A stretch of DNA of 64,000 nucleotides from Candidatus Latescibacterota bacterium (GTDB lineage Bacteria; Latescibacterota; UBA2968): contig OZ242311.1 of the NCBI GenBank assembly GCA_965207885.1, positions 608,001 through 672,000 of the forward strand, in the 5' to 3' direction. This document shows positions 22,342-62,735 of this stretch, in pieces. The position numbers were made by a program, and so were the translations under genes. Below the pieces are notes generated by a model. The model searched no databases. It worked only from the letters and a program-made list of their open reading frames with translations, and was not told where the DNA came from. The stretch's first letter is position 1, and every line of letters begins with the position of its first letter.

Positions 22342-22770
22342 TTATCTTCCCTTTTTTAGAAGCGGTGAGAAATAAAAAATCACTTGACCAATGATTACGT
22401 CCCTTGTTGTGTATAAAAACTGTAAATATCTACAAAGATCAGAAAATTGGAAAAATCTACTGTTCCGTCATTAAGGGGGTTATACCCTTAATAGGAAATA
22501 CGCCCTTAGCTGCTTTTTTAAGATGAAGGAAGGACCCGCCCGACATAAAAAGAGACTTTATAGTATAGCGGTCGTATTTTGTGCGTTTTATCTTGGCTCT
22601 CCTTTTGGTCTGAACAACTCCATTTTAATGGCTTCCGGTAGTGTCTCAGTTTGAAAATTTGCGGTTTTCTGTTGACAGGGGTACGGTGCGTACTTTATTA
22701 TTCAACTTAACCCGCAGATTTCGTTCGTTCACAAGAGAAATACATTCAGGATTCAGGAGGGCAACCGACT

Positions 22771-22986
22771 ATGCCAAAGGGACCAAACGGAGAAAAGCGC
22801 CCTGGCGATGTCGTATCTTGTGCTGTAACAGTAGCACGTATTGCAACCGGTGAAATAGAAGATACGAAATACAAACAGCCAGGCAAACGAAAAGGAGGGG
22901 TCGCAGGTGGGCGTGCCCGTGCAAAAGCACTCTCGCCAAAGCGACGCAAAGAAATAGCGAAAAAAGCTGCCGCCGCAAGGTGGTAG
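22771..22986 (+). CDS. Small basic IS-associated protein
   Basis: MPKGPNGEKRPGD...GGRARAKALSPKRRKEIAKKAAAARW; SD; followed by a terminator at ~23004-23033. Confidence 0.85.
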   Translation: MPKGPNGEKRPGDVVSCAVTVARIATGEIEDTKYKQPGKRKGGVAGGRARAKALSPKRRKEIAKKAAAARW

Positions 22987-23091
22987 CTATCAGAGCAAGG
23001 AATAAGCCGAGGTCTATACGATCTCGGCTTTTTTGTTTTCAAAAACCACTCTATCCTTGACAATGGCTTTTTGCAGTGGTACATTTCTTAT

Positions 23092-23250
23092 GCTTCAGAT
23101 TAGTCACACTCAGTAGAGGCCCCGCTTGGTCGGGTAGCCTGCTGAATAGAATAGCCAAATTGTGGAGCGGATTAGCTACCCGTCCCCGGTGAATAGGTAG
23201 GGCCCTCCTCGCATCTCTCTGCGTGAGTGTGACTACTACCCGGCATCCTT
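23092..23250 (+). ncRNA. Putative structured ncRNA, copy A
   Basis: Promoter TTGACA(23057)-17-TACATT; stems tagtcacactca/tgagtgtgacta and cgggtagc/gctacccg; homologous to 58340-59420. Confidence 0.65.
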
Positions 23251-23280
23251 GCGCAATCTTTTCCACACACATTCATACAC

Positions 23281-23385
23281 AAAAAAGAGCCGGAAGACTC
23301 TGGCGGAGCCTCCCGGCAAAGGCAGACACGCGAACCACCCGTTGAAAGTTTATCGCTGCATCCACCTGATTCGTAAATGAGTGGA
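23281..23385 (-). ncRNA. Putative ~100-nt sRNA convergent on ncRNA A
   Basis: Minus-strand TTGACA (~23418) with TACTTT -10; GC hairpin then U6 ending at 23281. Confidence 0.4.
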
Positions 23386-23465
23386 TTTCAAAGTAAGTAA
23401 AAACCTGCTTTGTGTCAATTCTGTTACAGGTGGATGTGGCGACTCACCACACAGAGGAGGTTTAA

Positions 23466-24098
23466 ATGTATAGGTTCATTCTTGCTGTTTTGTCGGTACT
23501 TGTGTACTCTGCTGGCTCGCCAATGCTCGCTACTGAGCGGCCTTATTTACGGACTGATAGCGGCCAAGCCCGTCAGTTGCGCTATTCGGAGATCTATGCA
23601 ACGGCCTGGTACGGAACAGAGGGCACCATTAACCTTCATATAATAATGTCATGGACTCCTAGCAATTCCATGACCTTCGTGAAATGGTTAGTAGTCAACG
23701 ATACGGCTCGGGATCTGTATTCTGTGACCATTGGAGACAGGGAGTACGAGTGTTCTAATGGAAATGTGATAACCGTCAAGGGGAATTGGTGGACTGATCC
23801 CTTGGAGGGCAGAAGGGTAGATGACACCGTGGTCATTGGAGGCAGGGAGTACGAATTGCCGCGGGGGTGGATGCGGCGTGTTGGTGGGACCAACCCCGAC
23901 ATCATACTCCACAAGAAGTCTCCGCGCGGCCAGAAGGAGTGTCCGCGCATCACAAGCATCCGCCTGAAGGGAGACCCTAAATCTCTTGTTAAATACCTCA
24001 TCAACAAAGGTGACAAAGATGTGCATGGCTGGGGAGAGGGCGGGCGAGTTGAGGTTTACCGGAAGGTATCCCGTCGCTGGAAATTGGAGATTAAATAG
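23466..24098 (+). CDS. Secreted hypothetical passenger protein
   Basis: SD GAGGAGG; signal peptide MYRFILAVLSVLVYSAGSPMLA. Confidence 0.8.
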   Translation: MYRFILAVLSVLVYSAGSPMLATERPYLRTDSGQARQLRYSEIYATAWYGTEGTINLHIIMSWTPSNSMTFVKWLVVNDTARDLYSVTIGDREYECSNGNVITVKGNWWTDPLEGRRVDDTVVIGGREYELPRGWMRRVGGTNPDIILHKKSPRGQKECPRITSIRLKGDPKSLVKYLINKGDKDVHGWGEGGRVEVYRKVSRRWKLEIK

Positions 24099-24116
24099 GC
24101 CACATAGCTTTAGTCG

Positions 24117-24302
24117 CTATCGCGGGATCTGATAATCCTCAATGACCGTGATTTCCTCCAAGGTGACGCCTGGTGCTGGTCTGATGGTTTTTACCAATAT
24201 CTGACGCTTCTTCTGCTGTTCGGCCCGATTCTGCCTTTCAGGGCAGATTCTGGTGCATAGCACATAATAGCCAAGATACGGGCATTGCTGACACTTTACC
24301 AT
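24117..24302 (-). CDS. Cys4 micro-protein, copy A (61 aa)
   Basis: CxxCPYLGYYVLCTRxC; SD AGAGGAG; homologue at 60683-60862. Confidence 0.75.
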   Translation of the reverse strand: MVKCQQCPYLGYYVLCTRICPERQNRAEQQKKRQILVKTIRPAPGVTLEEITVIEDYQIPR

Positions 24303-24362
24303 GACAGAGGTCTCCTCTAACTAAAGACTTGACCTCAGTACACAAATTTAGTATAATCTAAG

Positions 24363-24412
24363 TGTCTGGTGCCAAGGCATTCTTTTGGGGCGTGCTCATA
24401 ACACGCCCTTTT
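24363..24412 (+). ncRNA. Putative antisense sRNA to the Cys4 mRNA leader (A)
   Basis: TTGACC(24329)-17-TATAAT(24352), then hairpin gggcgtg/cacgccc and TTTT. Confidence 0.55.
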
Positions 24413-24553
24413 CCTTGCCCACCTCATTTTCGGCAGGCTCGTTGCGCTCTGCAACTATTCAATATTAACCGTTTTTCCCCACCCTGTCAACCATTCCCAC
24501 TTAGTTTGACATAAATGCTTGACAAACAGCACCTTAATCGCTAAATTTAAGGT

Positions 24554-25393
24554 ATGAATAAGTTAAGCAAAAACAAGCGGATACAGATACTTGCGATGTT
24601 GTGTGAGGGCATGTCGATGCGGTCGGTAAGCCGTGTTGTCGGGTGTTCTATCAACTCCGTATTGAAGTTGTTGGTAGATGCAGGACAGGTGTGTGCGTTT
24701 TACCATGATGAGCATGTGCGCGGTATAGAAGCAGCCCATATCCAGTGTGATGAGATATGGGCTTTTTGTTATTGTAAGCAGAAAACGGTAGAAAACGGGA
24801 ATGTGGATCAATACGGTGCGGGTGATGTGTGGACGTGGACGGCATTAGAGCGAGACACAAAGTTGATCATTGCCTATGAGGTCGGAGATCGGTCTGCTGT
24901 GACCGCAATGGAGTTTATATCGAATCTCCGTGCGAGATTGGTGACCCGGGTACAATTGACGACGGATGGCCTGAGGGCGTATCTCGAAGCGGTCGAGGGC
25001 GCGTTTGGTGATGATATAGACTTTGCCCAATTGGTGAAGATTTACGATACTGAGACGAACCAGTTGAAACGTGTGGTGATTGGAAACCCTGTTGAGAGCG
25101 ATATTTCAACATCCCACGTTGAGCGTCAGAATCTCAATATGCGAATGGGGATGCGCCGGTTTACGCGACTGACGAATGCGTTTTCAAAGAAGTTGGAAAA
25201 CCACATTCACATGCTGAGTCTCTACTTTCTGTATTACAATTTCGTGCGGATGCATTTGACGTTGGAGACAACGCCAGCAGTCGCGGCAGGGTTGGCAGAC
25301 GAAGCCTACACAATGGGCTGGATCGTTGACCTGGTGGATGCTCACGCACCCAAACCCAATCGACCAAAAACGTACCGCAAAATTTCAAACTGA
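24554..25393 (+). CDS. IS1-family DDE transposase
   Basis: N-term HTH (EGMSMRSVSR), QCDEIW, TTDG, VERQN, RRFTRLTNAFSKK; stop codon inside the IR. Confidence 0.9.
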   Translation: MNKLSKNKRIQILAMLCEGMSMRSVSRVVGCSINSVLKLLVDAGQVCAFYHDEHVRGIEAAHIQCDEIWAFCYCKQKTVENGNVDQYGAGDVWTWTALERDTKLIIAYEVGDRSAVTAMEFISNLRARLVTRVQLTTDGLRAYLEAVEGAFGDDIDFAQLVKIYDTETNQLKRVVIGNPVESDISTSHVERQNLNMRMGMRRFTRLTNAFSKKLENHIHMLSLYFLYYNFVRMHLTLETTPAVAAGLADEAYTMGWIVDLVDAHAPKPNRPKTYRKISN

Positions 25394-25402
25394 GACACTA
25401 CC

Positions 25403-25640
25403 TGGCTTCCCCAAAAGTAGGCTGTTTCATTACTCTTGTAATTTTGTCCCGTATGCGAAAACTCAGGACATAAGGAGGGAACAGGAAATGTGTGTAATAG
25501 AATTCATACGTGGCGCAGAACTTCTCTCCCAACTGCATAACTTCGGCCCCGAGGTAGTTCGCTAATCCGTATTCCTTCGCTCTAACGGCGGCATTGTATC
25601 GCTTGCATACTTCGAGGATTTTTTTCTTTGGATTTTTCAT
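25403..25640 (-). pseudogene. Phage-like small gene split by the IS1 element (3' end at ~22588-22636)
   Basis: Removing the IS and one TSD gives ...QPTFGEAIKMELFRPKGEPR*. Confidence 0.65.
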
Positions 25641-25905
25641 TGGCTTGCTCTTGCGTCTTTCAACTGCTCGGCGATTGTTCTGCGGCGGGAGATAATCTCT
25701 TTTGCGTTGGCTCGATCAATTTTCTTTCGCGCTTGGTTGCGGACGTATCTGAGAATTTCGTTGGGGTCTTGGTTCAGATAGTTCCCGACTACGCGGCAGA
25801 ACTCTGTGAGGTTGCGATTCCGCGGGAGGAATTGCATTTGTGACAGGCAGTCACTAAGTTAGATTCGTCATTGCTCCCGCCTTTGCTGTATGATCTAACG
25901 TGATC
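25637..25905 (-). pseudogene. 5'-truncated, frameshifted HNH endonuclease
   Basis: DHVRSYSKGGSNDESNLVTACHKCNSSRG, continuing after a frameshift as NRNLTEFCRVV. Confidence 0.8.
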
Positions 25906-25974
25906 AAAAGAGACGCATTGCAAGGAATGCGTCTCAAAGATAAATAAGAGGTATGACAGGGTATGTCGTGGGTG
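25906..25974 (-). promoter_or_regulatory. 69-bp repeat copy 2: putative WYL operator/promoter, immediately after the WYL stop
   Basis: Minus strand CGACAtacccTGTCAT-N10-TA-N3-T followed by a hairpin and T4. Confidence 0.75.
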
Positions 25975-25975
25975 G

Positions 25976-26953
25976 TCAGGTTTTTTTATAAGAATCTAGA
26001 TTTTTTTTGAGTTCCTCAATTATTTCTTCGCGTAGGGCGGGTGGTTCGAGGACTTCTGCATCTGCGCCATGGCTGAGTATCCAAGATTTTATTTCGTAAA
26101 AACCGCCGGCTTGAAAGGAGAGTATTATCTCGCCAGTGTCCAGTTCTTCAATTTTTTCTGAGGGGTGCCAGATCCGCTGTTTGATGTATCGAGCTTGCCA
26201 GGCGGAGAATCGGATTTTGACGTCTATTGGGTCTTCGAGTGTGATGCCGAATGCCTGCTGGATGCGGTTTTCGATGTCCAGATCATCGGGTGGCTCAAAG
26301 GTTTGGGATGTGATTTCGAGGTCTTGAATGCGTTCTGCTGCGAGTGTGAGTAAGTCGGCGTAATTTGGATTGCGGCAGAGTAGATAATATCCGTTGTGAT
26401 AATACAATAATCTAAAGGGTGTAATGGGATAGGTTTTGGTTTGTCCGGTTGTGATGGCGTGATAGGTGATGTTGCAAATTTTACGTTCTTTGATTGCGCG
26501 ATGAGCGGTTTCGAGTACTTCAGGAGATATCAGCGCTTTTTGCCCGCGATGATGGGGGTAATAAGCTGCGCCCGCCTTTTCTAAAAATGCTTGCATCGGC
26601 TCTGGGAGCGTTGTTCTGATTCTGTTCAGGGTTTTCTGAAATGCTTCTTTGTATGGCGTGCCTTCAAGCGGGCTGACGATTCCTTCGATGAAGGTCAGTG
26701 CGATGATTTCGTCGGTGGGAAAGTTCAGGGGTGGCAGGTTGTTTTTTTCGAGTTTAAAGTATTTTTTTCCGCGGTCTCCCACTTCTTCATTGATACTGAA
26801 GCCCACTTCTCGGAGATCATCGAGATCCCTTTGTATGGTGCGCTTGTCAACGCCCGATTCGTCGGCGAGTTTTCGATAAGGCACACCATAAGTCTGGGCG
26901 AGGAGTGTGCGGAGGATGTCCAGTTGACGGACGATTTGTTTGTTGTCTGACAT
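25976..26953 (-). CDS. HTH-WYL-WCX transcriptional regulator (PafBC/DriD-like)
   Basis: KRTIQRDLDDL HTH; YYLLC..ERI WYL; WHPS..EIKSWILSHG..VLEP..LRE WCX. Confidence 0.93.
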   Translation of the reverse strand: MSDNKQIVRQLDILRTLLAQTYGVPYRKLADESGVDKRTIQRDLDDLREVGFSINEEVGDRGKKYFKLEKNNLPPLNFPTDEIIALTFIEGIVSPLEGTPYKEAFQKTLNRIRTTLPEPMQAFLEKAGAAYYPHHRGQKALISPEVLETAHRAIKERKICNITYHAITTGQTKTYPITPFRLLYYHNGYYLLCRNPNYADLLTLAAERIQDLEITSQTFEPPDDLDIENRIQQAFGITLEDPIDVKIRFSAWQARYIKQRIWHPSEKIEELDTGEIILSFQAGGFYEIKSWILSHGADAEVLEPPALREEIIEELKKNLDSYKKT

Positions 26954-26967
26954 GGCTATTTTGCAAA

Positions 26968-27002
26968 TAAAAAGGGCTTACGCCATCCCGACGTAAGCCC
27001 TT
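26968..27002 (-). terminator. tRNA-Leu terminator
   Basis: aagggcttacg/cgtaagccctt stem with T-run on the minus strand. Confidence 0.7.
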
Positions 27003-27011
27003 GTGTTTTTA

Positions 27012-27098
27012 TGGTGCCGAAGGTGGGACTCGAACCCACACGGCCTTGCGGCCACTGGATTTTGAGTCCAGCGCGTCTACCAATTCCACCACTTCGGC
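27012..27098 (-). tRNA. tRNA-Leu(CAA)
   Basis: Cloverleaf GCCGAAG...TTCGGCACCA, long variable arm, anticodon CAA. Confidence 0.97.
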
Positions 27099-27144
27099 AC
27101 CTGAAGTCCTGTGGTCAAGAATATCCCAAACGCCGTATTGCGTG

Positions 27145-27717
27145 TCAAGGGTTTTTGAAGTGATCTGTTTCAGCGCGTGGCGGTCCGATGATTTCGTTGT
27201 AGATGATGGCTTTTCGGATGGTGTTGGGTTCAAAATCGAGTTTTATACGGCGTTTTTTGCGTTTGGGGCGCAGGAGTGTTTGGGTTTCAGATGCGCGTGT
27301 AAATAGGGTTTTGCCTTCGATGTAAGACGATTCATCGGAGACAGGGCGCTTGACCTCAACTTCCTGGAATTCTGGTCCGGTATCAGCTTCGGAGACGGGA
27401 CGTTTGCCGTGTACCTCCTGAAATTCTGGTCCTGTGTCCGCTTCAGAGACGGGACGTTTGCCATGCACTTCCTGAAACTCTGAAGGGGGTTTGGGTTCTG
27501 GTTTGGGTTCTGGTTCGGGAGGTCCGAAGAGGACTTCCCATTCAGAGAGGTCGATTTCCTCTTCAAAGGGATCGTCGGCACCTGCGTCGCGGGACGTTTG
27601 CCTGCGCTGGAGTTTGGTTTCGTCGGGTTCTCTGGTGCCTCGCAGCCTTTTTATGAGCGGCGAGATAAGGCTGAAGAAGAGAAACACGATTATCGGTATG
27701 AGTACTTCCAGTTCCAT
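27145..27717 (-). CDS. YqfB-like membrane-anchored protein (third gene of floA operon) with 18-aa tandem repeats
   Basis: N-term TM helix; C-term KAIIYNEIIGPPRA. Confidence 0.75.
   Translation of the reverse strand: MELEVLIPIIVFLFFSLISPLIKRLRGTREPDETKLQRRQTSRDAGADDPFEEEIDLSEWEVLFGPPEPEPKPEPKPPSEFQEVHGKRPVSEADTGPEFQEVHGKRPVSEADTGPEFQEVEVKRPVSDESSYIEGKTLFTRASETQTLLRPKRKKRRIKLDFEPNTIRKAIIYNEIIGPPRAETDHFKNP
27337..27480 (-). repeat. 54-bp coding tandem repeat, about 2.7 copies
   Basis: EFQEVHGKRPVSEADTGP twice, then EFQEVEVKRPVS. Confidence 0.9.
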
Positions 27718-27746
27718 GATGTAAGACCATTTGTTATGGGGTTATG

Positions 27747-27846
27747 GTACGGGCGACCACAGGGGGTCGCCCCTACAAGTCACAATATCATCGTAGGGGA
27801 CGGTCCCCGTATAGAGACATTACGGGGCAGGCCCTGTGCCGTCCCT
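27747..27846. repeat. GTAG-type REP-like palindromes
   Basis: gggcgacc/ggtcgccc-ctac, gtaggggacgg; a similar element lies at ~45827-45880. Confidence 0.6.
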
Positions 27847-28830
27847 TTATTGGTTGTTGTCTTCGTCTTCTTCGGTTTCACCAGCGATGCCTTCGCGCAT
27901 TTGCGTGTCGGCTTCGATGTTGCGCATGCGGTAGTAGTCCATAATGCCCATGTTGCCACTGCGAAATGCGTCGGACATTGCGAGGGGTACTTCGGCTTCG
28001 GCTTCGACGACGCGGGCGCGCATTTCTTCAACGCGGGCTGCCATTTCTTGTTCTAGTGCAACGGCCATTGCTCTGCGTTCTTCGGCGCGCGCCTGTGCGA
28101 TGTTTTTGTCGGCTTCGGCCTGGTCTGTCTGGAGTTTTGCACCGATGTTGTCGCCCACATCCACGTCGGCGATGTCGATGGAGAGGATTTCGTAGGCGGT
28201 GCCCGAGTCGAGGCCCTTGTCCAGTACGGTTTTGGAGATCATGTCGGGATTTTCGAGTACGTCTTTGTGGGTTTCCGAGGAGCCGATGGTGGTGACGATG
28301 CCTTCGCCTACGCGGGCCATGATGGTTTCTTCACCTGCGCCACCGACCAGGCGTTCTATGTTGGCGCGAACCGTGACGCGAGAGGTGGCTTTGACCTGTA
28401 TGCCGTCTTTGGCAACGGCGGTGACCATGGGGGTGGAGATGACTTTGGGGTTGACGCTGACCTGTACGGCTTCGAGGACGTCGCGCCCAGCAAGGTCGAT
28501 GGCGGCGGCGCGTTCGCCGGTCAGACCAATGCCAGCTTTGTCTGCGGCGATGAGGGCGTTGACGACATTTTCGACATGACCCCCGGCGAGGAAGTGGGCT
28601 TCGAGAAATGCAGTGGGTATGTCGAGACCCGCTTTGGTTGCGTTGATTTGCGAGCCGAGGATGATGCGCGGGGGTACGCGACGCAAGCGCATGCCGACGA
28701 GTTCGATGATGCCGATGCGCACGCGCGCGGCAAGGGCGGAGATCCAGAGTCCGACGGGAATGAAGTAGAAAAAGAGGGAGAGTAGCAGAATGCCACCTAC
28801 AACAAAGAGGAGGAGGATAATAGCGTCCAT
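27847..28830 (-). CDS. floA: Flotillin-like protein FloA (YqfA)
   Basis: [38 protein letters not shown]. Confidence 0.95.
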
Positions 28831-28856
28831 GAAAAGCTCCTTAAAAATGGTCGGTC

Positions 28857-30194: not shown

Positions 30195-30346
30195 TAAGAT
30201 CCTCCAGAATATATTTTCATGAATACCTTATATTGAGGTGGTTGTCAATGGTTTTGAGGTTTGATGCGTGGTAAGGAGGATAGGTTGCAGATGGAGAGAG
30301 ATAGAAGGGCAATGGAAGCGCCCATCATCGCAGCAGGCTCCCGTTT

Positions 30347-30386
30347 GTCATCGCGGCAAGGTGTAAGCCGCGATCCAGAAGGTTTT
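30347..30386 (+). repeat. REP-like repeat copy
   Basis: gtcatcgcggc..gccgcgatccagaaggtttt. Confidence 0.8.
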
Positions 30387-30462
30387 GATCGCTGATCGCT
30401 TGTTTTGCCAATGCTTGACACTATAAGCGTTTTCCTGTATTTTTCTCGCCCTGATATCATGT

Positions 30463-30535
30463 GGCGGCATAGCTCAGCTGGTAGAGCAGTGGAATCATAA
30501 TCCATGGGTCGGGGGTTCGAGTCCCTCTGCCGCTA
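30463..30535 (+). tRNA. tRNA-Met(CAT), probably elongator
   Basis: GGCGGCATAGCTCAG...anticodon CAT...GGTTCGAGTCC; CCA not encoded. Confidence 0.93.
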
Positions 30536-30925: not shown

Positions 30926-30947
30926 TTTGTTTTTTGGCGGATGGGAA

Positions 30948-37516: not shown

Positions 37517-37521
37517 ACGCC

Positions 37522-45882: not shown

Positions 45883-45924
45883 GTCATCGCGGCATGTTTT
45901 TGAGCCGCGATCCAGAAGGTTTTT
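45883..45924 (+). repeat. REP-like repeat, identical to 47403-47444
   Basis: 42-bp exact direct repeat. Confidence 0.9.
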
Positions 45925-45929
45925 GTTTT

Positions 45930-47336
45930 TTAATTTCCATCAGCAGGTTCGGGGAGTATGCGTTTTATTAAGTGATGTTTGTATCCAAAGCCGGGACCTT
46001 CGACTGTGGAGATGTCGATGTGGCCGTTTTGCCGGCGATAGACGCCGGGGTGTACGGCGGCTTCGGGGATTGAGGCTTCGGGGTAAAATTGCATGGCGTT
46101 GGTTTCAAAGCCCATGACGGTGCCAGCATAGGCGGTGAGCAAGGCGTGGGGGATTTGCGCGAGCATGGGATTTGTGAGGTCCTGTACCATGAGTGTCATG
46201 CCGTGTGCGCGTGCCCAGCAGAGGGAGAGCAGGGCGCCGGTCTGGGTTTTGCAGGTTTTGAGTGCGACGCCGGTCCAGCCGAGTTGCCGCCCCAGGCGTA
46301 TGACGCGCCAGTCGTGCGCGCTTTCGTCCATGAAGAGGGGTTTGCGTGCGGAGATGCTGTGGACGTGGAGGGGATTTTCAGAGAGTTCATAGGCAAAGGG
46401 CTGTTCGACATAGAGGATCATTTGATAGATGCGCGGGTGGTCGGTGAGGAGGCGGTCCAGGATGTCGTTGACGTAATCGACTTGTTGGACGGTGCAGTTG
46501 AAGTCTGTACACAACCACATGGCGTTGTTTTCGATGCCGATTTGTCCGATGCGGACGATGCGGTCGTAATCCCATCCGGGTTCTTGTCCGGTGAGTTTGA
46601 TTTTGAGGCAGGTGATGCCGTCGCGTTGTATCCAGTTGGGGAGGACTACGGGATAGCCGTCGTCGGGTTCATCGCCTGTGCGTTCAGAGTCGTCGAGGAG
46701 GTCGTTGCCGCCTACGGCGTGCCATGCGGGCAGGCGGTTTGGTCGCGGGCGGATGAGATAGTTTTCGGGATAGCGACCGGCGAAGTTGTCGTCGATGTCG
46801 TCGGCGGTGTCGAGGTAGTGCGAGAGGTCGGCGTTCATGAATTCTGCGTTGTACGTGTCGTAGATGTCGATGTTGTGGCACATGCCATAAGCGTCGTGCA
46901 GGGCGAGGTCATAAGCCGAGGCGCAGACGAGCGCGGATAGGCGGGGCATGTCTCCCGTGGTGTTTTGTTGTTCGATGTTGAAGGCCGACAGGAGGTTGGG
47001 GAGGATGTTTTCCTGGACTATGTGGCCGATTTCGATGGGGTGACCGGCGGTGTCGATGCCTGCATAGGCGCGTCCGATTTTGAGGCAGAAGTTTTTCATG
47101 GCCGTTTCCCGGATGGCATAAGTGAGGTGCGGCGATGGCCATGCCCAGGGCGCGCTTAAAGGTGTTTCTCCCCAGCCAGAAGCGGTGTTGCCGCGCTGGT
47201 CTTCGACGTCGATGCGGACTCTGACGCAGGTGACGCTGTCGAGTTGTTCGGTGCCAAAGCGGTAGGGTATGCGCGTTTGTACGGGGAGGAAGTAGGTGGC
47301 GACGGATTTGATTTTTATGTCTGTTGGTTTGGGCAT
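45930..47336 (-). CDS. Enolase-superfamily (mandelate racemase/MLE-like) protein
   Basis: GWGE, LKIK, DFN, EQP, DES, PGFG. Confidence 0.85.
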   Translation of the reverse strand: MPKPTDIKIKSVATYFLPVQTRIPYRFGTEQLDSVTCVRVRIDVEDQRGNTASGWGETPLSAPWAWPSPHLTYAIRETAMKNFCLKIGRAYAGIDTAGHPIEIGHIVQENILPNLLSAFNIEQQNTTGDMPRLSALVCASAYDLALHDAYGMCHNIDIYDTYNAEFMNADLSHYLDTADDIDDNFAGRYPENYLIRPRPNRLPAWHAVGGNDLLDDSERTGDEPDDGYPVVLPNWIQRDGITCLKIKLTGQEPGWDYDRIVRIGQIGIENNAMWLCTDFNCTVQQVDYVNDILDRLLTDHPRIYQMILYVEQPFAYELSENPLHVHSISARKPLFMDESAHDWRVIRLGRQLGWTGVALKTCKTQTGALLSLCWARAHGMTLMVQDLTNPMLAQIPHALLTAYAGTVMGFETNAMQFYPEASIPEAAVHPGVYRRQNGHIDISTVEGPGFGYKHHLIKRILPEPADGN

Positions 47337-47402: not shown

Positions 47403-47444
47403 GTCATCGCGGCATGTTTTTGAGCCGCGATCCAGAAGGTTTTT
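47403..47444 (+). repeat. REP-like repeat
   Basis: 42-bp exact direct repeat of 45883-45924. Confidence 0.9.
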
Positions 47445-48506
47445 TTATTTTAATGTCCATTCAAGTGCCTCCAAAAAGCGGTCGTTTTCTCGTTCGGTGC
47501 CGATGGATACGCGCAGCGCCCTGTCGAGCATAGGATAGGATGTGACGTTGCGGATGAGTACGCCTTGTTCGATTAGTCCGGTGAAGACGAGGTCCGGGTC
47601 GGCGACTTCAAAGAGGATGAGGTTGGCGTGTGATGGATAGGGTGTGACGCCTTCTATTTTGGCGAGGGCCTGGAAGACGCGCTCGCGTTCTGAGCAGATG
47701 AATGCGATGCGTTTTTGTATGAGGTCTTTGTGGTTGAGGATGGCCATGGCCGCTGTGTGCGAGAAGATGTTGATGTCAAAGGGGATTTTGCCTTTGATGA
47801 TTTCGTCGCGCAAGTCGGGGTGGGCGATGAGATATCCAATGCGGATGCCCGCGGCGCCAAATGCTTTGGAGAGGGTTTTGAGTACGATGAGGTTGGGGTG
47901 TTTGGGCAAGAGGTCGATGGCGGTCTGATCGTAGAATTCGCCGTAGGCTTCATCGACCATGACGAGGGCGCTGGTGCTGGATAAGAGTTTGTCGAGGTCT
48001 GTGTTTGAGATGGCGCATCCCGTGGGGTTGTTGGGGGAGCAGAGGATGATGAGGCGCACGTTTTTTTCGCTGGCAGCGCGACATAGAGCCGGGATGTCGA
48101 AGCCGTAGTTTTCTGTGAGGGGAATGTCGAGGACGCGTCCGCTGAATATGTCGGTGTAGAGGCCGTAGAGGGAGAATGAGGGCGAGGGGATGACGACCTG
48201 GACACCGGGTGCGGATACGACGCCGAGGACGAGTTGTACGAGGGTGTTCGATCCGTTGCAGACGATGAGTCCACCGGGTTGGACGCCTGCGTGGTCGGCG
48301 AGTGCTTCGACGAGGTCCATTTGCATGGGTTCGGGATAGCGCGACCAGGATTTGTCCCGGACGGCGCGCAAGATGTCGTCTTTCAAGCTGTCGGGTACGT
48401 CAAACGGGCTTTCGTTTTGATTGAGCTTGATGGGACAATCGTAGGCGGTGAGATGGTACCCGTGCAGGGCGCGGACTTCGGGTTTTATGTTTTGGAGGTA
48501 GGTCAT
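47445..48506 (-). CDS. hisC: Histidinol-phosphate aminotransferase
   Basis: LNQNESP, PNNPTG, DEAY, TLSKAFG..RIG. Confidence 0.95.
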   Translation of the reverse strand: MTYLQNIKPEVRALHGYHLTAYDCPIKLNQNESPFDVPDSLKDDILRAVRDKSWSRYPEPMQMDLVEALADHAGVQPGGLIVCNGSNTLVQLVLGVVSAPGVQVVIPSPSFSLYGLYTDIFSGRVLDIPLTENYGFDIPALCRAASEKNVRLIILCSPNNPTGCAISNTDLDKLLSSTSALVMVDEAYGEFYDQTAIDLLPKHPNLIVLKTLSKAFGAAGIRIGYLIAHPDLRDEIIKGKIPFDINIFSHTAAMAILNHKDLIQKRIAFICSERERVFQALAKIEGVTPYPSHANLILFEVADPDLVFTGLIEQGVLIRNVTSYPMLDRALRVSIGTERENDRFLEALEWTLK

Positions 48507-55932: not shown

Positions 55933-55959
55933 TGGCGAGGTAGGCCTCGTCCCTGAAGG

Positions 55960-56193
55960 TTAAGATTTATTCAGCGTCAAAATGATGGTGATAGCCGTTC
56001 CGATATTGGTAAGGAGAACTGTAATCAGTAAGCCGACTGTCCACTTAAAGTTGCTGTTGATTCGATTCTCGATATTCGTAAAACGGTTGTCCATGTTGTT
56101 TAATCGATTGTCGATGCTATTCAATCGGTGGTTGATCTGCTCAACGATCGCTTCAAGGGCTGCGACACGGCTTTCAATGGTGGGAACGTTCAT
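55960..56193 (-). CDS. Small coiled-coil protein with C-terminal TM helix
   Basis: Heptads IDNRLNNMDNRFTNIENRI, then KWTVGLLIT. Confidence 0.7.
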   Translation of the reverse strand: MNVPTIESRVAALEAIVEQINHRLNSIDNRLNNMDNRFTNIENRINSNFKWTVGLLITVLLTNIGTAITIILTLNKS

Positions 56194-56280
56194 AATGCGT
56201 CCTTTTTGTGTGCAAAGAGTATATTCAGTTCTATGTGTTTTGTCAACGCGATATCCTCATTTTTTCTCTGGTGATAAATC

Positions 56281-57201: not shown

Positions 57202-57265
57202 GGGGTGTGAAGAGGCCTCACACAAAGACATAAAGACACAAAGGTACGGAACGATAAAGGCACTC

Positions 57266-57303
57266 GTCATCGCGGCATGTTTAAAGCCGCGATCCAGAAA
57301 GTT
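57266..57303 (+). repeat. REP-like repeat copy
   Basis: gtcatcgcggcatg..gccgcgatccaga. Confidence 0.8.
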
Positions 57304-57421
57304 AGGTGCTTTCATGGCCTCTGCAAGAGGCATGGTTTTATATTGCGGGAGAAATATTTTACCTTATTTTTTCTTTATTCGCAGTTGTCATAGAAAAAAC
57401 GATTTTACAAGGGAGGTTGTT

Positions 57422-57787
57422 ATGTTTCGAGATATTTGTCGCGTGTTCGCGTTGGCACTCGTGGCTGGTGTGATATGGGGTAATGCACAGATCACGAGTT
57501 CTTCCGCGATGGCCGCCGATGATGAGGATGCGCTCACCAAAGCTTATGTAATGAAGGCCATTGAGCGTTACCAGCGCGATGGCCGGGAAGCCACACTCGC
57601 ATACTACAGTAGCCGAGAAAGTATCGAAGGCGAGCGGCTCATGCTTATCATTGACCCGCAGCAAAGCATCATACTGGCAAGTGGTTTATCCACGCGCGTC
57701 GGTGCGCCCGCGCCCGCCCTCGGTCCAGTCACTCCGGAAGGCATCTGGATGGATCATCAAGGTATTCATCCCAGAACCCGACAGTTA
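57422..57787 (+). pseudogene. 5' part of secreted multi-Cache-domain gene, split by the IS1595 element
   Basis: SD and signal peptide; joins in frame to 62736 (RTRQL|GPMRNFLIRHDDLVF). Confidence 0.9.
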
Positions 57788-57816
57788 GGGAATTATATAC
57801 AATAGTGCCGAAGTGA

Positions 57817-58281
57817 TTAAAAACGCTTGAGTGCTTCAGCAAAGTAGTCAATTTTCCGGTTGGGCACATCTTCGCCATTGTATTGCATCTCTATATACAC
57901 GCGCGGCGTTGGGTGCCTGTTTCGGTCATATTCACTGCGTAGTTCTATTGCAGTCTGTCCATTGTCCGTGATCCAGGTCGGGTTCAGGTATGCACAGTCT
58001 TTAACCGGATCCCCGTTTTTCTCTATAAGCACATTTTGGACATTCTCATATAACTTGTCACATTTCTGAAACAAGCAATAATCCAAAGATATGAGCTTAT
58101 ATATGTCTTCTTCTCGGCTAAAACGGTAGCTCAAAACACCCTCACACCTAAGGACCCACCCTTTATATGACAGTGTGAGTTGGTCTTCCTTGTGCAACTC
58201 CCACCCCGAACCTTCTTCGGATGCTTTTACTTCTTCCCGAGAAGCACCCCAGTACGTATTCAATACTTTTATTCTGGACAT
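57817..58281 (-). CDS. Hypothetical passenger protein
   Basis: SD GGAGG; WGASREEV motif; stop abuts the IR. Confidence 0.7.
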   Translation of the reverse strand: MSRIKVLNTYWGASREEVKASEEGSGWELHKEDQLTLSYKGWVLRCEGVLSYRFSREEDIYKLISLDYCLFQKCDKLYENVQNVLIEKNGDPVKDCAYLNPTWITDNGQTAIELRSEYDRNRHPTPRVYIEMQYNGEDVPNRKIDYFAEALKRF

Positions 58282-58347
58282 ATTATCCCTCCAAAAAGTT
58301 TTTCTTTGCTCTACGGCAAAGTGTAACTATATTGCTCTTGTTCATCA

Positions 58348-59218
58348 TTAGGTAGTGTCTGAAAAGTAAGCTTTGAAGAGTTGTCTGATACAGGCCAGCT
58401 TGACCATAGTGAGAAAATGAGTCGCCTTTTTTTCAAATCGGGTCACAATCCGTCGGCAGTGTTTAAGCCAACCAAAGAGACGCTCCACGATATTGCGTTT
58501 GGCATATAATCTTTTATCACACTTAGGCCGTGGTCCTCTCTTACGCCGTTTTCTGCCTTTGGGAATCGCCTTGTTTGGGATAGCAGCCTTGATACCCCGT
58601 TTGCGTAGATAGACTCTGATGCGTGAGACATCATAAGATTTATCAGCTACCAGATACTTGGGTCGGTTTCTTGGACGCCCTCGTTTGGTGGGTATGCATA
58701 CCTTTGACAGTAGCCTTTCAGCCTGTGTGGATTCTGACTGGTTACCAGGGAGAAGATCCACTGCTAAAGGATGCCCGACTGCATCGCAAAGAAGATGGAT
58801 TTTCGTGGTCAAACCGCCACGAGAGCGTCCTAAAGCGTGATCTGGGGGCTCTTCTTCACCCTTTTTGCCCTTTTTTTTTCGCTCCTGCCGCGGCTTGTGT
58901 GGCTCGAATATGGGTTGCATCCATCATCCAGGTCGCATAATCTAAAAGACCATCTTCACCCAATTTGAGATGTAGCTTTTCTACAATGCGATCAAAGGTG
59001 CCATCCTGTTTCCATTTGCAGAATCGGTCAAAGGCTGTCTGCCAAGGACCATATCGTTCTGGCAGGTCGCGCCAAGCTGCACCTGAACACAATATCCAGA
59101 AGATCCCGTTGAATAATGTACGATCATCCCGACGGGGACGACCCATCTTCTTCGGCGGTGGGAACAGGTCTTGGATCAGATGCCAAGCCTCGTCGCGCAG
59201 TTCATATCTCCGTTGCAT
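58348..59218 (-). CDS. IS5 transposase in two overlapping ORFs (58856-59218 and 58348-58920), probable programmed frameshift
   Basis: WRDLPERYG, DAT; GRSRGG.TTK, ADKSY, RNIVERLF; A9 run in the overlap. Confidence 0.9.
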
Positions 59219-59287
59219 ATCATACTCCTTGGTTTAGGGCGTATGCTGCAACTAAAATACATACTTTACGACTTTTCAGACACTACC
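58351..59287 (-). mobile_element. IS5-family (IS427-like) element, 937 bp
   Basis: 17-bp IRs ggtagtgtctgaaaagt; TA duplication. Confidence 0.93.
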
Positions 59288-59507
59288 TAGGCAAACACCC
59301 GGAGGTCGGGTGGCCTACTAAATACAAGAGCCTTACAAAGGTCGGACTTGCTACCCGACCGGTGAATAGGTAGGACTTTCCGTAGATGTGTTTGCGTAAT
59401 GGTGAACTCCGCCCGGCACCTTTTTAAGTGCCGAGAGGGGGCACAGCATCATGCTTGCACATCCCTTCTGATCGAAGATAAAATCGCCTTACGCGAGATT
59501 ATGTGCC

Positions 59508-59556
59508 AAAGCCCTGGCGGATAAACAGTTATCGTTTATTGTCCGCCGGGGCTTTT
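59508..59556 (+). terminator. Strong intrinsic terminator/attenuator
   Basis: aaagccctggcgga...tccgccggggcttttt. Confidence 0.75.
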
Positions 59557-59770
59557 TGTTTTTGCTGTGCCTCACGCACCGTGCTGTTCATCATCATTGG
59601 CATTGCGCTACCAAATGCATGAGCACTTCGGAGACAGGTTGCTAATCTGTCCAGGCAGTGGGGCACAGCTTGAACGGAAAGGAGGTGAATTAGGTTAATT
59701 CAGCCTCATTGTAGTATGCCACAAAAACAACCAATTCGCAAGTTTTTACAACAAGGAAAGGAGAAGAGTA

Positions 59771-60049
59771 ATGGCAGAAATAAAAACGGTTCAATGTCCA
59801 CATTGTAAAAAAAATGTGCGTTTTGAGAAAAGCGCATCTGGCAAATGGGTTGGAACTATTGCTGGTGGTGGCATAGGGTGGGGGATTGGGTCGGGTTTGG
59901 GCATAGCCGGGGGAATACTCGGCGCACCTATCGCTATACCCGCTGCGCTTGTGGCATTGGGTATAGGCGCACTATTGGGCAATAGAGCAGGGGCAATAGC
60001 AGATAATTCTGTAAAATGTCCAAACTGCAAGGAGCACATGTCAATATGA
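59771..60049 (+). CDS. Glycine-zipper membrane peptide with CxxC at both ends
   Basis: CPHC...GxxxG repeats...CPNC; SD AGGAG. Confidence 0.8.
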   Translation: MAEIKTVQCPHCKKNVRFEKSASGKWVGTIAGGGIGWGIGSGLGIAGGILGAPIAIPAALVALGIGALLGNRAGAIADNSVKCPNCKEHMSI

Positions 60050-60060
60050 AAGGGGCAAGT

Positions 60061-60696
60061 ATGAAGTTTCGCAACTTACTCACGGTGGCCTTTCTGATGC
60101 TGACGGTCAACATCCAAGCGAGTCCACTTGGAGAGAACCCGTTTGGCTTCAAGATGGGTATAACTCAAGACGATGTGCGCAACTTGGAAGGCGTTGTTGT
60201 CGATAGTGCCTGGGTATCGGGAAAGACAAAAGTTTTGACACTCTCCAAAGTGCCAGTGCCAGATGCAAGGTTTGTGACCTTTAACCTGTATTTCACAGAG
60301 AAGCACGGCCTTTATACACTTCAGGCCATGAGCAATTTTCTCAGGGTTGGGACAGGCGGGCAGGACATTATGCCGAAATATGTTGCGCTTCGTGAAGAAT
60401 TGGCAAAAATCTATGATAAGTACACCAAATATGGATTCACCAAATCGGCTTATGTGGATGGCATCGCCACTTGGGAGACTGGTATTGAGTGGGCATTGCA
60501 AGTCAGAAAGGGAAGCGGTCGGCACGATGGGCACGCTTTCGTTTCAAACTGGCTATTAGGCTTGGGTGGTCAAAAACAAAGCGAGCAACTCAGCATTGTT
60601 GGGCTATCAATCAGGGTGTGGGATCCCGCAAACCTTGTGCTGACATTCGGCTTTCGCAATATGCATGATGCCGGCGACTATGTTAGTAATCCTTGA
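60061..60696 (+). CDS. Secreted hypothetical passenger protein
   Basis: Signal peptide MKFRNLLTVAFLMLTVNIQA; PFGFKMG. Confidence 0.75.
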   Translation: MKFRNLLTVAFLMLTVNIQASPLGENPFGFKMGITQDDVRNLEGVVVDSAWVSGKTKVLTLSKVPVPDARFVTFNLYFTEKHGLYTLQAMSNFLRVGTGGQDIMPKYVALREELAKIYDKYTKYGFTKSAYVDGIATWETGIEWALQVRKGSGRHDGHAFVSNWLLGLGGQKQSEQLSIVGLSIRVWDPANLVLTFGFRNMHDAGDYVSNP

Positions 60697-60862
60697 TGAC
60701 CACGGTGGTCTTCCAAGTGATGCGTGGCCTGGAGTTTCTTGCCAATATCCGGTTGAGATCTTTCCTGTTCTGTTGTTCGACCCGGCTCTGCCTTTCATGA
60801 CAGGTTCTGGTGCATAGCACATAATAGCCAAGATACGGGCAGTTCTGGCATTTGAATTCCAT
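60683..60862 (-). CDS. Cys4 micro-protein, copy B (59 aa, absent from ORF track)
   Basis: MEFKCQNCPYLGYYVLCTRTCHERQSRVEQQ...VIKDY; SD AAGGAG. Confidence 0.75.
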   Translation of the reverse strand: MEFKCQNCPYLGYYVLCTRTCHERQSRVEQQNRKDLNRILARNSRPRITWKTTVVIKDY

Positions 60863-60920
60863 GTCAAGCTCCTTACAGATAATCGCTTGACAGATTTCCC
60901 CAATTCATGTAAGTTTGGGT

Positions 60921-60987
60921 ATCATCTGTCGGCGATGGTATATATGGGGCCCGCCCTTATCCCAATGGGGGCGGGCTGCTGCATTTT
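60921..60987 (+). ncRNA. Putative antisense sRNA to the Cys4 mRNA leader (B)
   Basis: TTGACA(60887)-17-TAAGTT, then hairpin gcccgcccttat/atgggggcgggc. Confidence 0.5.
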
Positions 60988-61028
60988 GCAGCAGTATGTG
61001 TACATTTTACCGTATTCGCTTATTGCTG

Positions 61029-61970
61029 TCAAGCCGTGAGGTCGCAATACCTCAGCCGTTTCCCCTCAAATCCTCGCACGATCATCTTCATCTGCTCAAT
61101 GGTGTCCTTCATCCGCATGTTCTGCCGTGCCACAAACTCTGCGATATACCTCCACAGGTGCTTCTTGCTCATCTTGTGATACACACCCATGATGGCACGT
61201 TTGATGCCCGACCAGAAAGATTCGATGCCGTTTGTGTGAGCGTCATCTCGGACATATTCTCCCCGCGAGTGAATCACCTTTTCGTGTTCGTATCCTTCCA
61301 GGTCATTATAGACGTGTGACCCGTCTGTATAGACGGTTGCACCCTTCTTGGTGCGATCTTCTATAAACGCGTGTAGGGTGTCCTCATCGGGATCGTCAAT
61401 CACAAGGGCCTGAACCTGTTTGGTCTCTCTATTCTTCACGCCAGCCACAGGGATTTTGCCCGATGTGCCTCTGCCAGCACGCAGTTTCTTCTTCGCGTGT
61501 TTGTTGCCTTCCTTGCCGCCGATATAGGTCTCATCAACTTCTACTGTGCCCTCAAACAGGAAGAGTTGCTCTTCTGCCATCGCCTCACGGATACGATGCA
61601 GAAGATGCCATGCTGTTTTCTGTGTGACACTCAAATCACGATGGATCTTCATGGATGAAATCCCTTTGAGTGTGGTGGTAAAAAGATAGACAGCAAATGC
61701 CCATATCTGATAGCCAAGGTTGGAACACGCCATAATGGTGCCCGTCTTTACAGAGAACCGTTTGTCACAGTCCCTGCATCTGTGTGGCATGGTCTTGTGC
61801 GCCGTCCTTTCATTCACATTGACACTCCCACAACACGGGCAGGCCATCCCATCAGGCCAGCGTGTGTGGATAAACCACTTCTCTGCGGTCGCGTTGTCGG
61901 GGAACATCTTGAACAACTGGATGAGGGATATGCCCTCTCGCTGATGCATGCCAGGCGCATTGCGTGCCAT
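61029..61970 (-). CDS. IS1595-family DDE transposase
   Basis: Zn ribbon CPCC..C..C, QKTAW HTH, VEVDET, YTDG, NGIESFW. Confidence 0.95.
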   Translation of the reverse strand: MARNAPGMHQREGISLIQLFKMFPDNATAEKWFIHTRWPDGMACPCCGSVNVNERTAHKTMPHRCRDCDKRFSVKTGTIMACSNLGYQIWAFAVYLFTTTLKGISSMKIHRDLSVTQKTAWHLLHRIREAMAEEQLFLFEGTVEVDETYIGGKEGNKHAKKKLRAGRGTSGKIPVAGVKNRETKQVQALVIDDPDEDTLHAFIEDRTKKGATVYTDGSHVYNDLEGYEHEKVIHSRGEYVRDDAHTNGIESFWSGIKRAIMGVYHKMSKKHLWRYIAEFVARQNMRMKDTIEQMKMIVRGFEGKRLRYCDLTA

Positions 61971-62068
61971 AGGTACACCTCACTTTTCTCTTGCAATTTG
62001 TGTGGTGACCCGTTATTTTTTATTCAAGCTAACCTAATCTCATTGTTTAGCTTTTTGGAGGGCAGTTG

Positions 62069-62106
62069 GGCGAGCCCTATGTTCCAGCATAGGGCTCGCC
62101 CTTTTT
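62069..62106 (+). terminator. Intrinsic terminator hairpin
   Basis: gggcgagccctatg/catagggctcgccc followed by T5. Confidence 0.7.
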
Positions 62107-62320
62107 ATATCTGCCCAAAAAATAATGGGTTACGATTTGAAATAAGATAACATTCCGTACGCTAAAATGCAAGTATTTTTTACTGCTCAAATGTGCAGTA
62201 AAAAAGAAAAGTGCTTGATTCTGAGAACCCGTTGGGTTAGATTTGGGCATCCATTATTAGCGCCATTTACGGTTGTATCAGCAACCGTAAATGGCTAACC
62301 CCCACATCCAAGGAGGAAAC

Positions 62321-62626
62321 ATGGGGATCTTTAATCCGGGGCGGCCATCCACCCAGGATCCGCCGGGCAGCATGGGACTGTATCGCTCAGTAGGACCCGA
62401 GGGCAATCTTAAGTATATCGGGTCGGCGAGTGACCTGAGTAGCCGTATCAATGCTCAGATCAGGTCAGGTGCTAAGGTGTCGCCTGGTGACACAATAGCT
62501 TGGCAGGCGGCCAAGCTAGGCACAACTATTCAACAAGTGAGGGCACATGAGGCCGCAAAGATAGCCCAACACAACCCACCCCTGAACCTCAGAGCGGGTG
62601 GAGGAGGACGCCTGCCAAATACGTGA
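62321..62626 (+). CDS. Stand-alone minimal GIY-YIG nuclease
   Basis: GLY..KYIGSA..L..R..HE..I....PPLN; SD AGGAGG; terminator at ~62644-62677. Confidence 0.8.
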   Translation: MGIFNPGRPSTQDPPGSMGLYRSVGPEGNLKYIGSASDLSSRINAQIRSGAKVSPGDTIAWQAAKLGTTIQQVRAHEAAKIAQHNPPLNLRAGGGGRLPNT

Positions 62627-62735
62627 TGATAATGTGTAACGAGAAAAGGGAGAACACGATCTGTGTTCTCCCTTTTTGTTTGCCAACATCTTTCTTGGTC
62701 ACTTCGGCACTATTGTATATAATTCCCGACAGTTA

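Follow-up and report, generated by a model that had tools for sequence, protein, structure and literature searches.

A structured RNA family heads variable, mostly exported cargo in IS1595-family and IS1-like transporter elements

We analyzed a 64,000-nucleotide (nt) stretch of the genome of a Candidatus Latescibacterota bacterium (assembly GCA_965207885.1, contig OZ242311.1, positions 608,001 to 672,000; the whole stretch is called the window and is numbered from its first letter). It holds two insertion sequences (ISs) with passenger genes, an IS1-family element (element 1) and an IS1595-family element (element 2), and in both of them the cargo genes stand behind copies of the same structured RNA. 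IS1595-family and IS1-like elements repeatedly carry this RNA together with variable, mostly exported cargo, and the RNA family is uncatalogued, with no entry in Rfam 15. A small gene for a peptide with four cysteines (Cys4), which the initial annotation of the window had counted as the third part of a single cassette, is a separate, lineage-restricted gene and not part of the RNA/cargo unit. On balance, we lean towards reading the RNA as a riboswitch-like leader carried within a self-contained passenger cassette of transporter ISs (tISs).

Two transporter elements with a common leader RNA

The RNA was traced with a covariance model, R1, built from three RNA copies of this genome. In element 1 the RNA lies at 23098-23254, with a sigma-70-like promoter adjoining its 5′ end, much as the initial annotation had it, and a homologous RNA stands in element 2 (59290-59422). 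Element 1 is bounded by 29-nt inverted repeats (IRs; 22637-22665 and 25374-25402, 97% identity) and by an 8-bp target site duplication (TSD; tggcttcc, at 22629-22636 and 25403-25410); the TSD length expected for the IS1 family is 8-9 bp. Since the 6.23-Mb genome holds four identical copies of this element, we judge it to be active now or to have been so recently. Its transposase matches Pfam DDE_Tnp_IS1 (37.2 bits; cut-off 24.1) and reaches 74.6 bits with NCBIfam transpos_IS1, under the cut-off of 100, and is thus a distant member of the IS1 family. The features of element 1, including open reading frames (ORFs; lengths in amino acids, aa) and Shine-Dalgarno (SD) sequences, are as follows.

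22637-25402, plus strand: IS1-family transporter IS, 2766 bp, four identical genome copies
22771-22986, plus strand: small basic ORF, 71 aa, without family match, with its own promoter-like site (22672-22701) and a terminator-like hairpin (23004-23030)
23057-23085, plus strand: sigma-70-like promoter, TTGACA-17-TACATT, with TG ahead of the -10 box; adjoins the RNA 5′ end
23098-23254, plus strand: copy of the structured leader RNA in the IS1 element, with outer stem P1, helix H2 and the conserved internal loop; R1 161.7 bits
23289-23317, minus strand: terminator-like hairpin past the cargo gene; consensus match only
23466-24098, plus strand: cargo gene, 210 aa, hydrophobic N-terminus, no family
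24117-24302, minus strand: Cys4 peptide gene, 61 aa, convergent with the cargo gene; SD GAGGAG
24329-24409, plus strand: promoter-like TTGACC-17-TATAAT (24329-24357), then a terminator-like hairpin (24387-24409); consensus matches only
24462-24490, minus strand: promoter-like site, candidate driver of the peptide gene; consensus match only
24554-25393, plus strand: IS1-family transposase, single ORF, 279 aa

Element 2 ends in 36-nt IRs (57788-57823 and 62692-62727, 92% identity) and is flanked by an 8-bp TSD, GACAGTTA, so that the boundaries first assigned to both elements hold. It interrupts one gene, now in two parts (57314-57805 and 62676-63977). Its transposase is well above the cut-offs of Pfam DDE_Tnp_IS1595 (131.8 bits; cut-off 27) and NCBIfam transpos_IS1595 (198.3 bits; cut-off 75), and the N-terminus of the protein scores slightly below the cut-off for Zn_ribbon_IS1595 (23.3 bits; cut-off 25.4). 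The element contains the following features.

57788-62727, no strand assigned: IS1595-family transporter IS, nested IS5 included, 4940 bp
57817-58281, minus strand: ORF, 154 aa, no family
58341-58350, plus strand: severed 5′ strand of the RNA outer stem, TTCATCATTA; its complement in the 3′ part is TAATGGTGAA
58351-59287, minus strand: nested IS5-family element with overlapping transposase ORFs (58856-59218 and 58348-58920)
59290-59422, plus strand: leader RNA, remaining 3′ part, IS1595 copy; R1 135.1 bits
59771-60049, plus strand: cargo 1, 92 aa, a zinc-ribbon-like CxxC pair at both ends and a Gly-rich hydrophobic middle
60016-60696, plus strand: cargo 2, 226-aa ORF, hydrophobic N-terminus, no family
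60683-60862, minus strand: Cys4 peptide gene, 59 aa, 3′ end overlapping cargo 2 by 14 nt; SD AAGGAG
60948-61032: terminator-like hairpin 60948-60977 (plus strand) and promoter-like TTGACA-17-TAAAAT 61032-61004 (minus strand), upstream of the peptide gene; consensus matches only
61029-61970, minus strand: IS1595-family transposase, 313 aa
62291-62626, plus strand: ORF, 111 aa, weak GIY-YIG-like N-terminus (E = 0.056, below cut-off)

The interval 58340-59420 had been described as one long RNA. Most of it, however, is the nested IS5-family element (58351-59287), recognizable by 19-nt IRs, a TA duplication and a match to NCBIfam transpos_IS5_3 (158.8 bits). Because this insertion cuts TTCATCATTA from its partner TAATGGTGAA, the leader RNA of element 2 is probably disabled; a relative, locus L035, holds the uninterrupted version. 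The two overlapping transposase ORFs of the nested element suggest a frameshift, and its IR starts with GGTAGTGTCT, which is also the first 10 bases of the element 1 IR.

The initial annotation called the transposases of the two elements unrelated. They do fall into different families by Pfam and NCBIfam, and a BLASTP comparison gives E = 0.45, but weak reciprocal NCBIfam matches (4.4e-5 and 2.8e-4) link them. The IS1 and IS1595 families are regarded as distant relatives, and the word unrelated overstates the case. The description of the cargo genes as non-homologous and exported is in line with our results: BLASTP between the cargos of the two elements gives E = 3.3, and hydrophobic N-termini are found in both. 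Translation of cargo 2 more likely starts at ATG 60061 (MKFRNLL...), and locus L051 has a 48.5%-identical homologue of this protein downstream of an RNA copy. Two unrelated elements, that of locus L159 and element 2, each carry a second cargo gene (L159:1221-1415 and window 59771-60049) for a small CxxC-pair protein with a hydrophobic segment, a zinc-ribbon membrane protein. As for the gene order proposed to be the same in both elements, RNA, cargo and peptide gene do follow one another alike, but the relation to the transposase gene differs: in element 1 the two genes are divergent, and in element 2 the peptide gene follows the transposase gene on the same strand.

Structure of the RNA

The RNA is about 150 nt long and is built from the outer stem P1, the long-range helix H2 and a conserved internal loop. 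P1 varies in sequence, yet its two strands are always complementary, with cognate strands pairing at a mean of -28.0 kcal/mol and non-cognate strands at -13.1 kcal/mol (n = 102 and 606; Mann-Whitney p = 1e-53). H2 is formed by GTCGGGTxy with y′x′GCCCGRC, its 3′ partner lying beyond the 3′ strand of P1, and pairs 8 and 9 of this helix covary (CG 34, AT 32, TG 16, GC 9, GT 4, TA 3, non-pairs 2; n = 102). Inner helices, CCTGC:GCAGG and GCC:GGY, enclose a variable hairpin and the internal loop, which is strongly conserved as UGAAUACAAnA opposite GAAUAG. Over 76 sequences, 97.5% of the cells pair, and sliding the partner lowers this to 24.6-48.8%. The covariation score, 0.234 compared with at most 0.045, is reached by 0 of 500 shuffles. 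The abundance of T-G pairs makes the fold strand-specific. The most conserved positions of the RNA are unpaired nucleotides.

One further helix, GGTCGGGTAGC:GCTACCCG, had been used in R1 and was dropped, as the wider alignment does not support it and its 5′ strand pairs with the 3′ tail. R1 still recovered the RNA family through sequence conservation despite the wrong helix.

Distribution of the RNA family

Against the 4227 families of Rfam 15, only two tRNAs reach the gathering score across the whole window, and a scan of 22600-24600 at E ≤ 10 gave nothing overlapping 23098-23254. With R1 we found nine RNA copies in this genome (G000). The RNA is present in 63 of the 151 genomes of the phylum, this one included, at 1-9 copies each, and three genera are nearly saturated for it (18/19, 15/15 and 18/22 genomes). 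A 27-letter degenerate pattern taken from the alignment was run over one-genome-per-species contigs and yielded at least 118 RNA-bearing stretches from many phyla. Taxa were tallied by record title for 80 records among the matches listed:

Latescibacterota: 14
Binatia: 10
Alphaproteobacteria: 9
Gemmatimonadota: 8
Nitrospirales/Nitrospira: 8
Longimicrobiales: 5
Others: 26, including Acidobacteriota groups, Gammaproteobacteria groups, Rhodothermales, Dehalococcoidia and "Poriferihabitaceae"

When run on the 80 listed loci, R1 gave 76 matches in 73 of them. The same pattern found 55 stretches in metagenomes, from few record series, and 0 matches in viral contigs. The record titles, together with some isolate labels that we take to be sponge-related, suggest that the RNA-bearing metagenome-assembled genomes are sponge-associated. 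Literature listings and abstracts contained no description of this RNA or of an RNA-led passenger in IS1595 or IS1 elements.

Association with IS1595 and IS1-like transposases

Homologues of IS1595 or IS1-like transposases occur in 29 of the 118 RNA-bearing genome loci of 8 kb and in 16 of the 55 RNA-bearing metagenome loci. Among loci of the phylum taken with 1.5 kb on either side, 6 of 29 have one (L038, L041, L044, L046, L050 and L053). Of the nine RNA copies in this genome, seven have an IS1/IS1595-type transposase gene within 6 kb and, conversely, all seven such transposase genes have an RNA nearby, two of them encoding proteins only 27-31% identical to the IS1595 transposase of the window. 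Across phyla, the linked transposases are 33-66% identical. Complete elements with perfect IRs and 8-bp TSDs that enclose RNA, cargo and transposase were found in other phyla at four loci:

L087: complete element, 3175 bp
L105: complete IS1-like element; its IR nearly matches the element 1 IR
L159: complete element, 2519 bp
L175: complete element, 2558 bp

The position of the RNA is fixed relative to the cargo, on the same strand, and both its place and its orientation relative to the transposase gene vary. One part of the initial interpretation is supported and extended, in that a conserved RNA with a variable payload recurs as a passenger in different IS families; the peptide gene, which that interpretation included, does not travel with it.

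In most RNA loci the stretch that was fetched contains no IS1/IS1595 transposase (89 of 118 loci from genomes, 39 of 55 from metagenomes), and RNA-plus-cargo units also stand alone in chromosomes. None of the 37 IS1595 matches in genome G081, of the same genus, comes within 9 kb of the 3 RNA hits there, and G080 has 7 RNA copies, none near its single IS1595 match. At transposase-less loci the upstream neighbours are ordinary genes (n = 105). Resolvase or recombinase domains appear in two of these neighbours, and there is no transposase among the best 25 of 99 matching families, a ranking that a family matching no more than one or two of the neighbours would escape. A search for IS-like IRs up to 5 kb from two RNA copies of this genome, C1:2467697 and C1:4766342, found none, and the few IR pairs at the transposase-less 8-kb loci were unconvincing.

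IS1595-like terminal repeats without a transposase match occur elsewhere in this genome, as an inverted pair at C1:1584271-1585899 and as solo repeats near 16388, 4068228, 4072941, 4467811 and 4972762; none of them is near an RNA copy. The inverted pair, 1.6 kb apart, could be a transposase-less derivative. In G081 the IS1595 lineage is expanded, and many copies have one in-frame TGA in the transposase match, which could reflect decay, recoding or a frameshift.

Promoters, cargo genes and expression platform

In 44 of 102 copies the 50 nt ahead of P1 contain a sigma-70-like site, compared with 12 of 306 shuffles, and the median distance from the end of the -10 box to P1 is 5 nt. Of 106 copies, 70 are followed within 420 nt by an ORF of 60 aa or more that is preceded by an SD, and the gap between RNA and ORF has a median of 42 nt. 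An N-terminal hydrophobic run was scored in 48 of these 70 ORFs by a crude test (not SignalP), and several further ones resemble signal peptides by eye. Pfam searches of 62 downstream proteins returned one ankyrin and three WD40 proteins, with no family for most.

The segment that follows GCAGGA, typically CCCGCAUCUC, is complementary to downstream sequence. Of 100 copies, 15 have a T-run behind the target of this core-segment duplex and 32 have a start codon there, the duplex often covering the SD in the latter; in element 1, the cargo SD GAGGAGG is complementary to the core segment CCTCCTC. Downstream mimics of the P1 5′ strand pair at -18.8 kcal/mol when cognate versus -16.6 kcal/mol otherwise. 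Mutually exclusive pairings are clear in individual RNA copies, but the family-wide contrasts are small.

Two side observations concern the region behind the RNA. In one subfamily (L039, L043, L048 and L068), the first ORF is a conserved upstream ORF (uORF) of 7-9 codons (MFMFKNTFT, MFMFKNAFT or MFKNVFT; MFMFKNxFT). The RNA core pairs with the SD and start of this uORF, and the long gene comes a further 250-340 nt downstream. A terminator-like element, GCCCTGGCGGA...CCAGGGCTTTT, is conserved in the genus (window 59510-59560, upstream of the L005 RNA, and in L035, L037, L042 and L047) and is found both behind RNA copies and elsewhere.

The Cys4 peptide is a separate gene

As the initial annotation stated, the peptides of the two elements are homologous. 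They have the motif C-x2-C-x8-C-x3-C in common, a conserved C-terminal (V/I)I(E/K)DY and a strong SD, and their genes share 37 identical nucleotides within an 86-nt repeat of 87% identity. The peptide is hydrophilic, basic and Cys-rich, and has no Pfam or NCBIfam match. Its homologues are rare: a word-indexed search of a 5.8-billion index gave 3 proteins, and an exhaustive profile search gave 5 clusters among 1.84 billion representative proteins. Nothing credible came from the other 167 genomes of the phylum, in which the profile had three hits at E = 0.003-0.009 (18-20 bits). We also searched the 202 fetched RNA loci outside this genome by tblastn. No match was found in loci L035-L181 with both peptides, nor in the 55 metagenome RNA loci with both peptides plus P0002-P0007. 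The complete RNA-bearing elements of other phyla are without the peptide, and a metagenome scan with the peptide profile ended with 32 pattern matches, 0 of them confirmed. AlphaFold2 on a 6-sequence alignment gave no usable model (mean predicted local distance difference test score, 47.8), and the ESM Atlas gave no lead (best score, 0.88). In P0003, P0004 and P0006 the C-terminal module (...RPxxxxxxxTVxEDY) is doubled after one Cys4 head, or the head is absent.

An opposing short RNA had been proposed at both peptide genes. Promoter-like and terminator-like sites do flank both of them, as consensus matches only. Each gene has a minus-strand promoter-like site and a plus-strand terminator-like hairpin, and element 1 also has a plus-strand promoter-like site at the peptide gene and a minus-strand terminator-like hairpin beyond the cargo. 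From these sites, the cargo and peptide transcripts would overlap in antisense. The sites at 24329-24409 would give a short transcript opposite the presumed 5′ untranslated region of the peptide gene, and the hairpin among them could also end the cargo transcript. Probably the peptide binds zinc and acts as a small regulator that is expressed in opposition to the cargo.

Neighbouring features of the window

The gene split by element 2 encodes repeated units of about 130 aa with YY(N/S)SRES(I/V)(E/D)G. Three tandem 54-nt repeats lie at 27335-27496 (78% and 65% identity to the first). An element made of a hairpin and a T-run, GTCATCGCGGCATGTTT..GAGCCGCGATCCAGAAGGTTTTT, is repeated at gene ends (30347-30384, 45883-45940, 47403-47460 and 57266-57303); this intergenic repeat looks like a repetitive extragenic palindrome (REP)-like or terminator family.

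A riboswitch-like leader and other explanations

On the reading that we favour, each tIS has acquired the same kind of passenger: a promoter, a leader RNA of about 150 nt, and one or two variable genes that mostly encode exported or membrane proteins. The RNA would be transcribed from its own promoter, with P1 at the extreme 5′ end, and would act in cis on the gene behind it. Element anatomy, structural covariation, distribution, promoter placement, gene neighbourhood and the association with transposases are shown by the data; the regulatory role, its ON logic and any role of the peptide are what we infer. With the core folded, a state that a ligand or protein may stabilize, the stretch from the conserved loop to the 3′ strand of P1 would be occupied. 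With the core unfolded, that stretch and the P1 3′ strand would be free to pair with downstream sequences, and this pairing would either finish a terminator or mask the start codon along with the ribosome-binding site, which would make the RNA an ON switch. Such a passenger unit would give the IS a regulated expression cassette at any landing site. In both window elements, the peptide gene would then lie antisense within the 3′ end of the cargo transcript.

Several of our findings weigh against this reading. By the same rule that found 70 downstream ORFs, 36 of the 106 copies have no SD-preceded ORF within 420 nt, and the genes downstream (62 proteins) share no pathway, unlike those of most riboswitches. 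The contrast of the core-versus-downstream duplex is weak (-14.8 vs -13.9 kcal/mol; p = 0.006), and a clear anti-P1 mimic is found in only about a fifth of the copies, 21 of 100 exceeding the 5% quantile set by non-cognate pairs. P1 and H2 cross, which implies either a sterically awkward pseudoknot or alternative states. In one subfamily, to which the IS1595 copy belongs, a terminator is conserved about 100 nt past the RNA and the cargo starts 240-350 nt off; this distant-cargo, terminator-bearing arrangement would also fit a stand-alone small RNA. Finally, with all seven transposase genes of this genome linked to an RNA, the RNA could serve the transposon itself.

A bolder version of the same idea is that this is a new riboswitch (or ribozyme) class in IS1/IS1595 transporter elements that spread ready-regulated genes for exported or eukaryote-like proteins among unrelated bacteria of one habitat, that the RNA senses a host-derived or symbiosis signal, and that its conserved sequence doubles as an upstream flank for cargo exchange. 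We put this forward tentatively and consider it doubtful as a whole; cargo exchange between conserved flanks is speculation. Less likely still, in our view, is a self-cleaving ribozyme or a processing or stability element that insulates the passenger mRNA from read-through and senses no signal. The pseudoknot-like, highly conserved core with its variable outer stem would suit such an element, as would the 1-9 copies per genome, the linkage to mobile elements and the mutually unrelated functions of the cargo, and in L085, L097, L142, L150 and L175 the RNA sits between transposase gene and cargo on the same strand. However, a promoter-like site adjoins P1 in 44 of 102 copies, so many copies would start the transcript; the downstream complementarity to SD or terminator strands suggests switching; and no ribozyme family of Rfam matches. 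It also seems improbable that the RNA serves the transposon, through control of transposase expression or in transposition, with the cargo incidental. The RNA within 6 kb of every one of the seven transposase genes here, even the two at 27-31% identity, speaks for such a role, and the linkage recurs across phyla with transposases 33-66% identical; in convergent layouts, a leader-driven transcript would run antisense into the transposase gene. But the RNA keeps a fixed spot relative to the cargo (median 42 nt upstream) and a variable one relative to the transposase, the 37 matches in G081 and the 7 RNA copies in G080 are unlinked, and 89 of 118 and 39 of 55 loci have no such transposase in the fetched stretch, with ordinary genes as their upstream neighbours.

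Two further explanations appear very improbable to us. One is that of the initial annotation, a three-part cassette of RNA, payload and antisense-controlled Cys4 peptide that moves between IS families as an addiction, immunity or cargo-exchange system. RNA, cargo and convergent peptide gene are indeed ordered alike in both window elements, the 86-nt peptide-gene repeat of 87% identity could be a recombination flank, and opposing promoter-like and terminator-like sites surround both peptide genes. Yet the RNA and the peptide are found independently of each other, a condition that the initial annotation itself had named as refuting the cassette. The peptide is rare in the databases searched (5 clusters in 1.84 billion, 3 proteins in the 5.8-billion index, nothing credible in 167 genomes), tblastn did not detect it at RNA loci of other genomes or metagenomes, and it is missing from the complete elements of other phyla. 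It is hydrophilic, unlike classic type I toxins, and none of the results ties it to immunity or addiction. The other would make the conserved element a DNA recombination site for cargo swapping, in the style of gene cassettes. A conserved element directly upstream of highly variable genes, in mobile elements and across phyla, is what such a site would look like; but many of its T-G pairs become C-A mismatches on the opposite strand, a promoter adjoins it, its unpaired nucleotides are the most conserved, and recombinases are not regularly found beside it (resolvase or recombinase domains in 2 of 105 genes upstream). Taken together, the initial observation is partly confirmed and its interpretation partly supported: the RNA with variable cargo is a genuine passenger of IS1/IS1595 elements, distributed much more widely than could be told from the window, and the RNA exists outside ISs as well.

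Relation to known systems

Passenger-carrying ISs and structured leaders are each familiar. What is absent from Rfam 15, and from the literature listings and abstracts searched, is one RNA family that accompanies variable genes for exported proteins in divergent IS1595-family and IS1-like elements and spans at least 10 phylum- or class-level lineages. Should it prove to be a switch, the RNA would be an orphan riboswitch candidate for which there are more than 200 examples and a clear structural model. It would then show mobile elements delivering self-regulating secretome genes, and, in uncultured symbionts, would offer a way to learn which signal governs host-facing proteins (ankyrin, WD40, lipoproteins). 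As to the annotation of the window, the gain is that the peptide is local, that a nested IS5 makes up most of the second "RNA" interval, and that the leader of the IS1595 copy is severed from its P1 5′ strand.

Transporter ISs are IS1595- and IS1-family elements with passenger genes, with subgroups named ISNwi1, ISSod11 and ISMhu11, and are reportedly covered by Siguier, Gagnevin and Chandler in 2009. The elements described here likewise encode one DDE transposase, end in IRs, have an 8-bp TSD and bring along genes without a function in transposition. They differ in that the passenger opens with a conserved structured RNA that is common to divergent transposases and phyla. Like riboswitches and orphan candidates, this RNA is promoter-proximal and covarying, with a pseudoknot-like core and conserved unpaired nucleotides; it lies on the same strand as the gene and near its start codon, and terminators or SD-covering complements follow some copies. 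Unlike riboswitches, it has downstream genes of no common pathway, has no match in Rfam 15 and is frequently carried by ISs.

Other ISs encode structured RNAs, namely, the omega RNA of IS200/IS605 (TnpB/IscB) and the bridge or seek RNA of IS110/IS1111, and ours is likewise a conserved noncoding RNA inside an insertion sequence. Those RNAs, however, guide the nuclease or recombinase of the element and sit at its end, whereas the transposases here are of the DDE type and the RNA stays with the cargo, not the transposase, and also occurs without one. The peptide gene invites a comparison with type I toxin-antitoxin pairs such as hok/sok: it is a small ORF with a strong SD and opposing promoter-like and terminator-like sites that could give a short antisense transcript. 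Unlike the toxins of these pairs, the peptide is hydrophilic, has four cysteines and is not a membrane peptide, and its transcripts are predicted from consensus sites.

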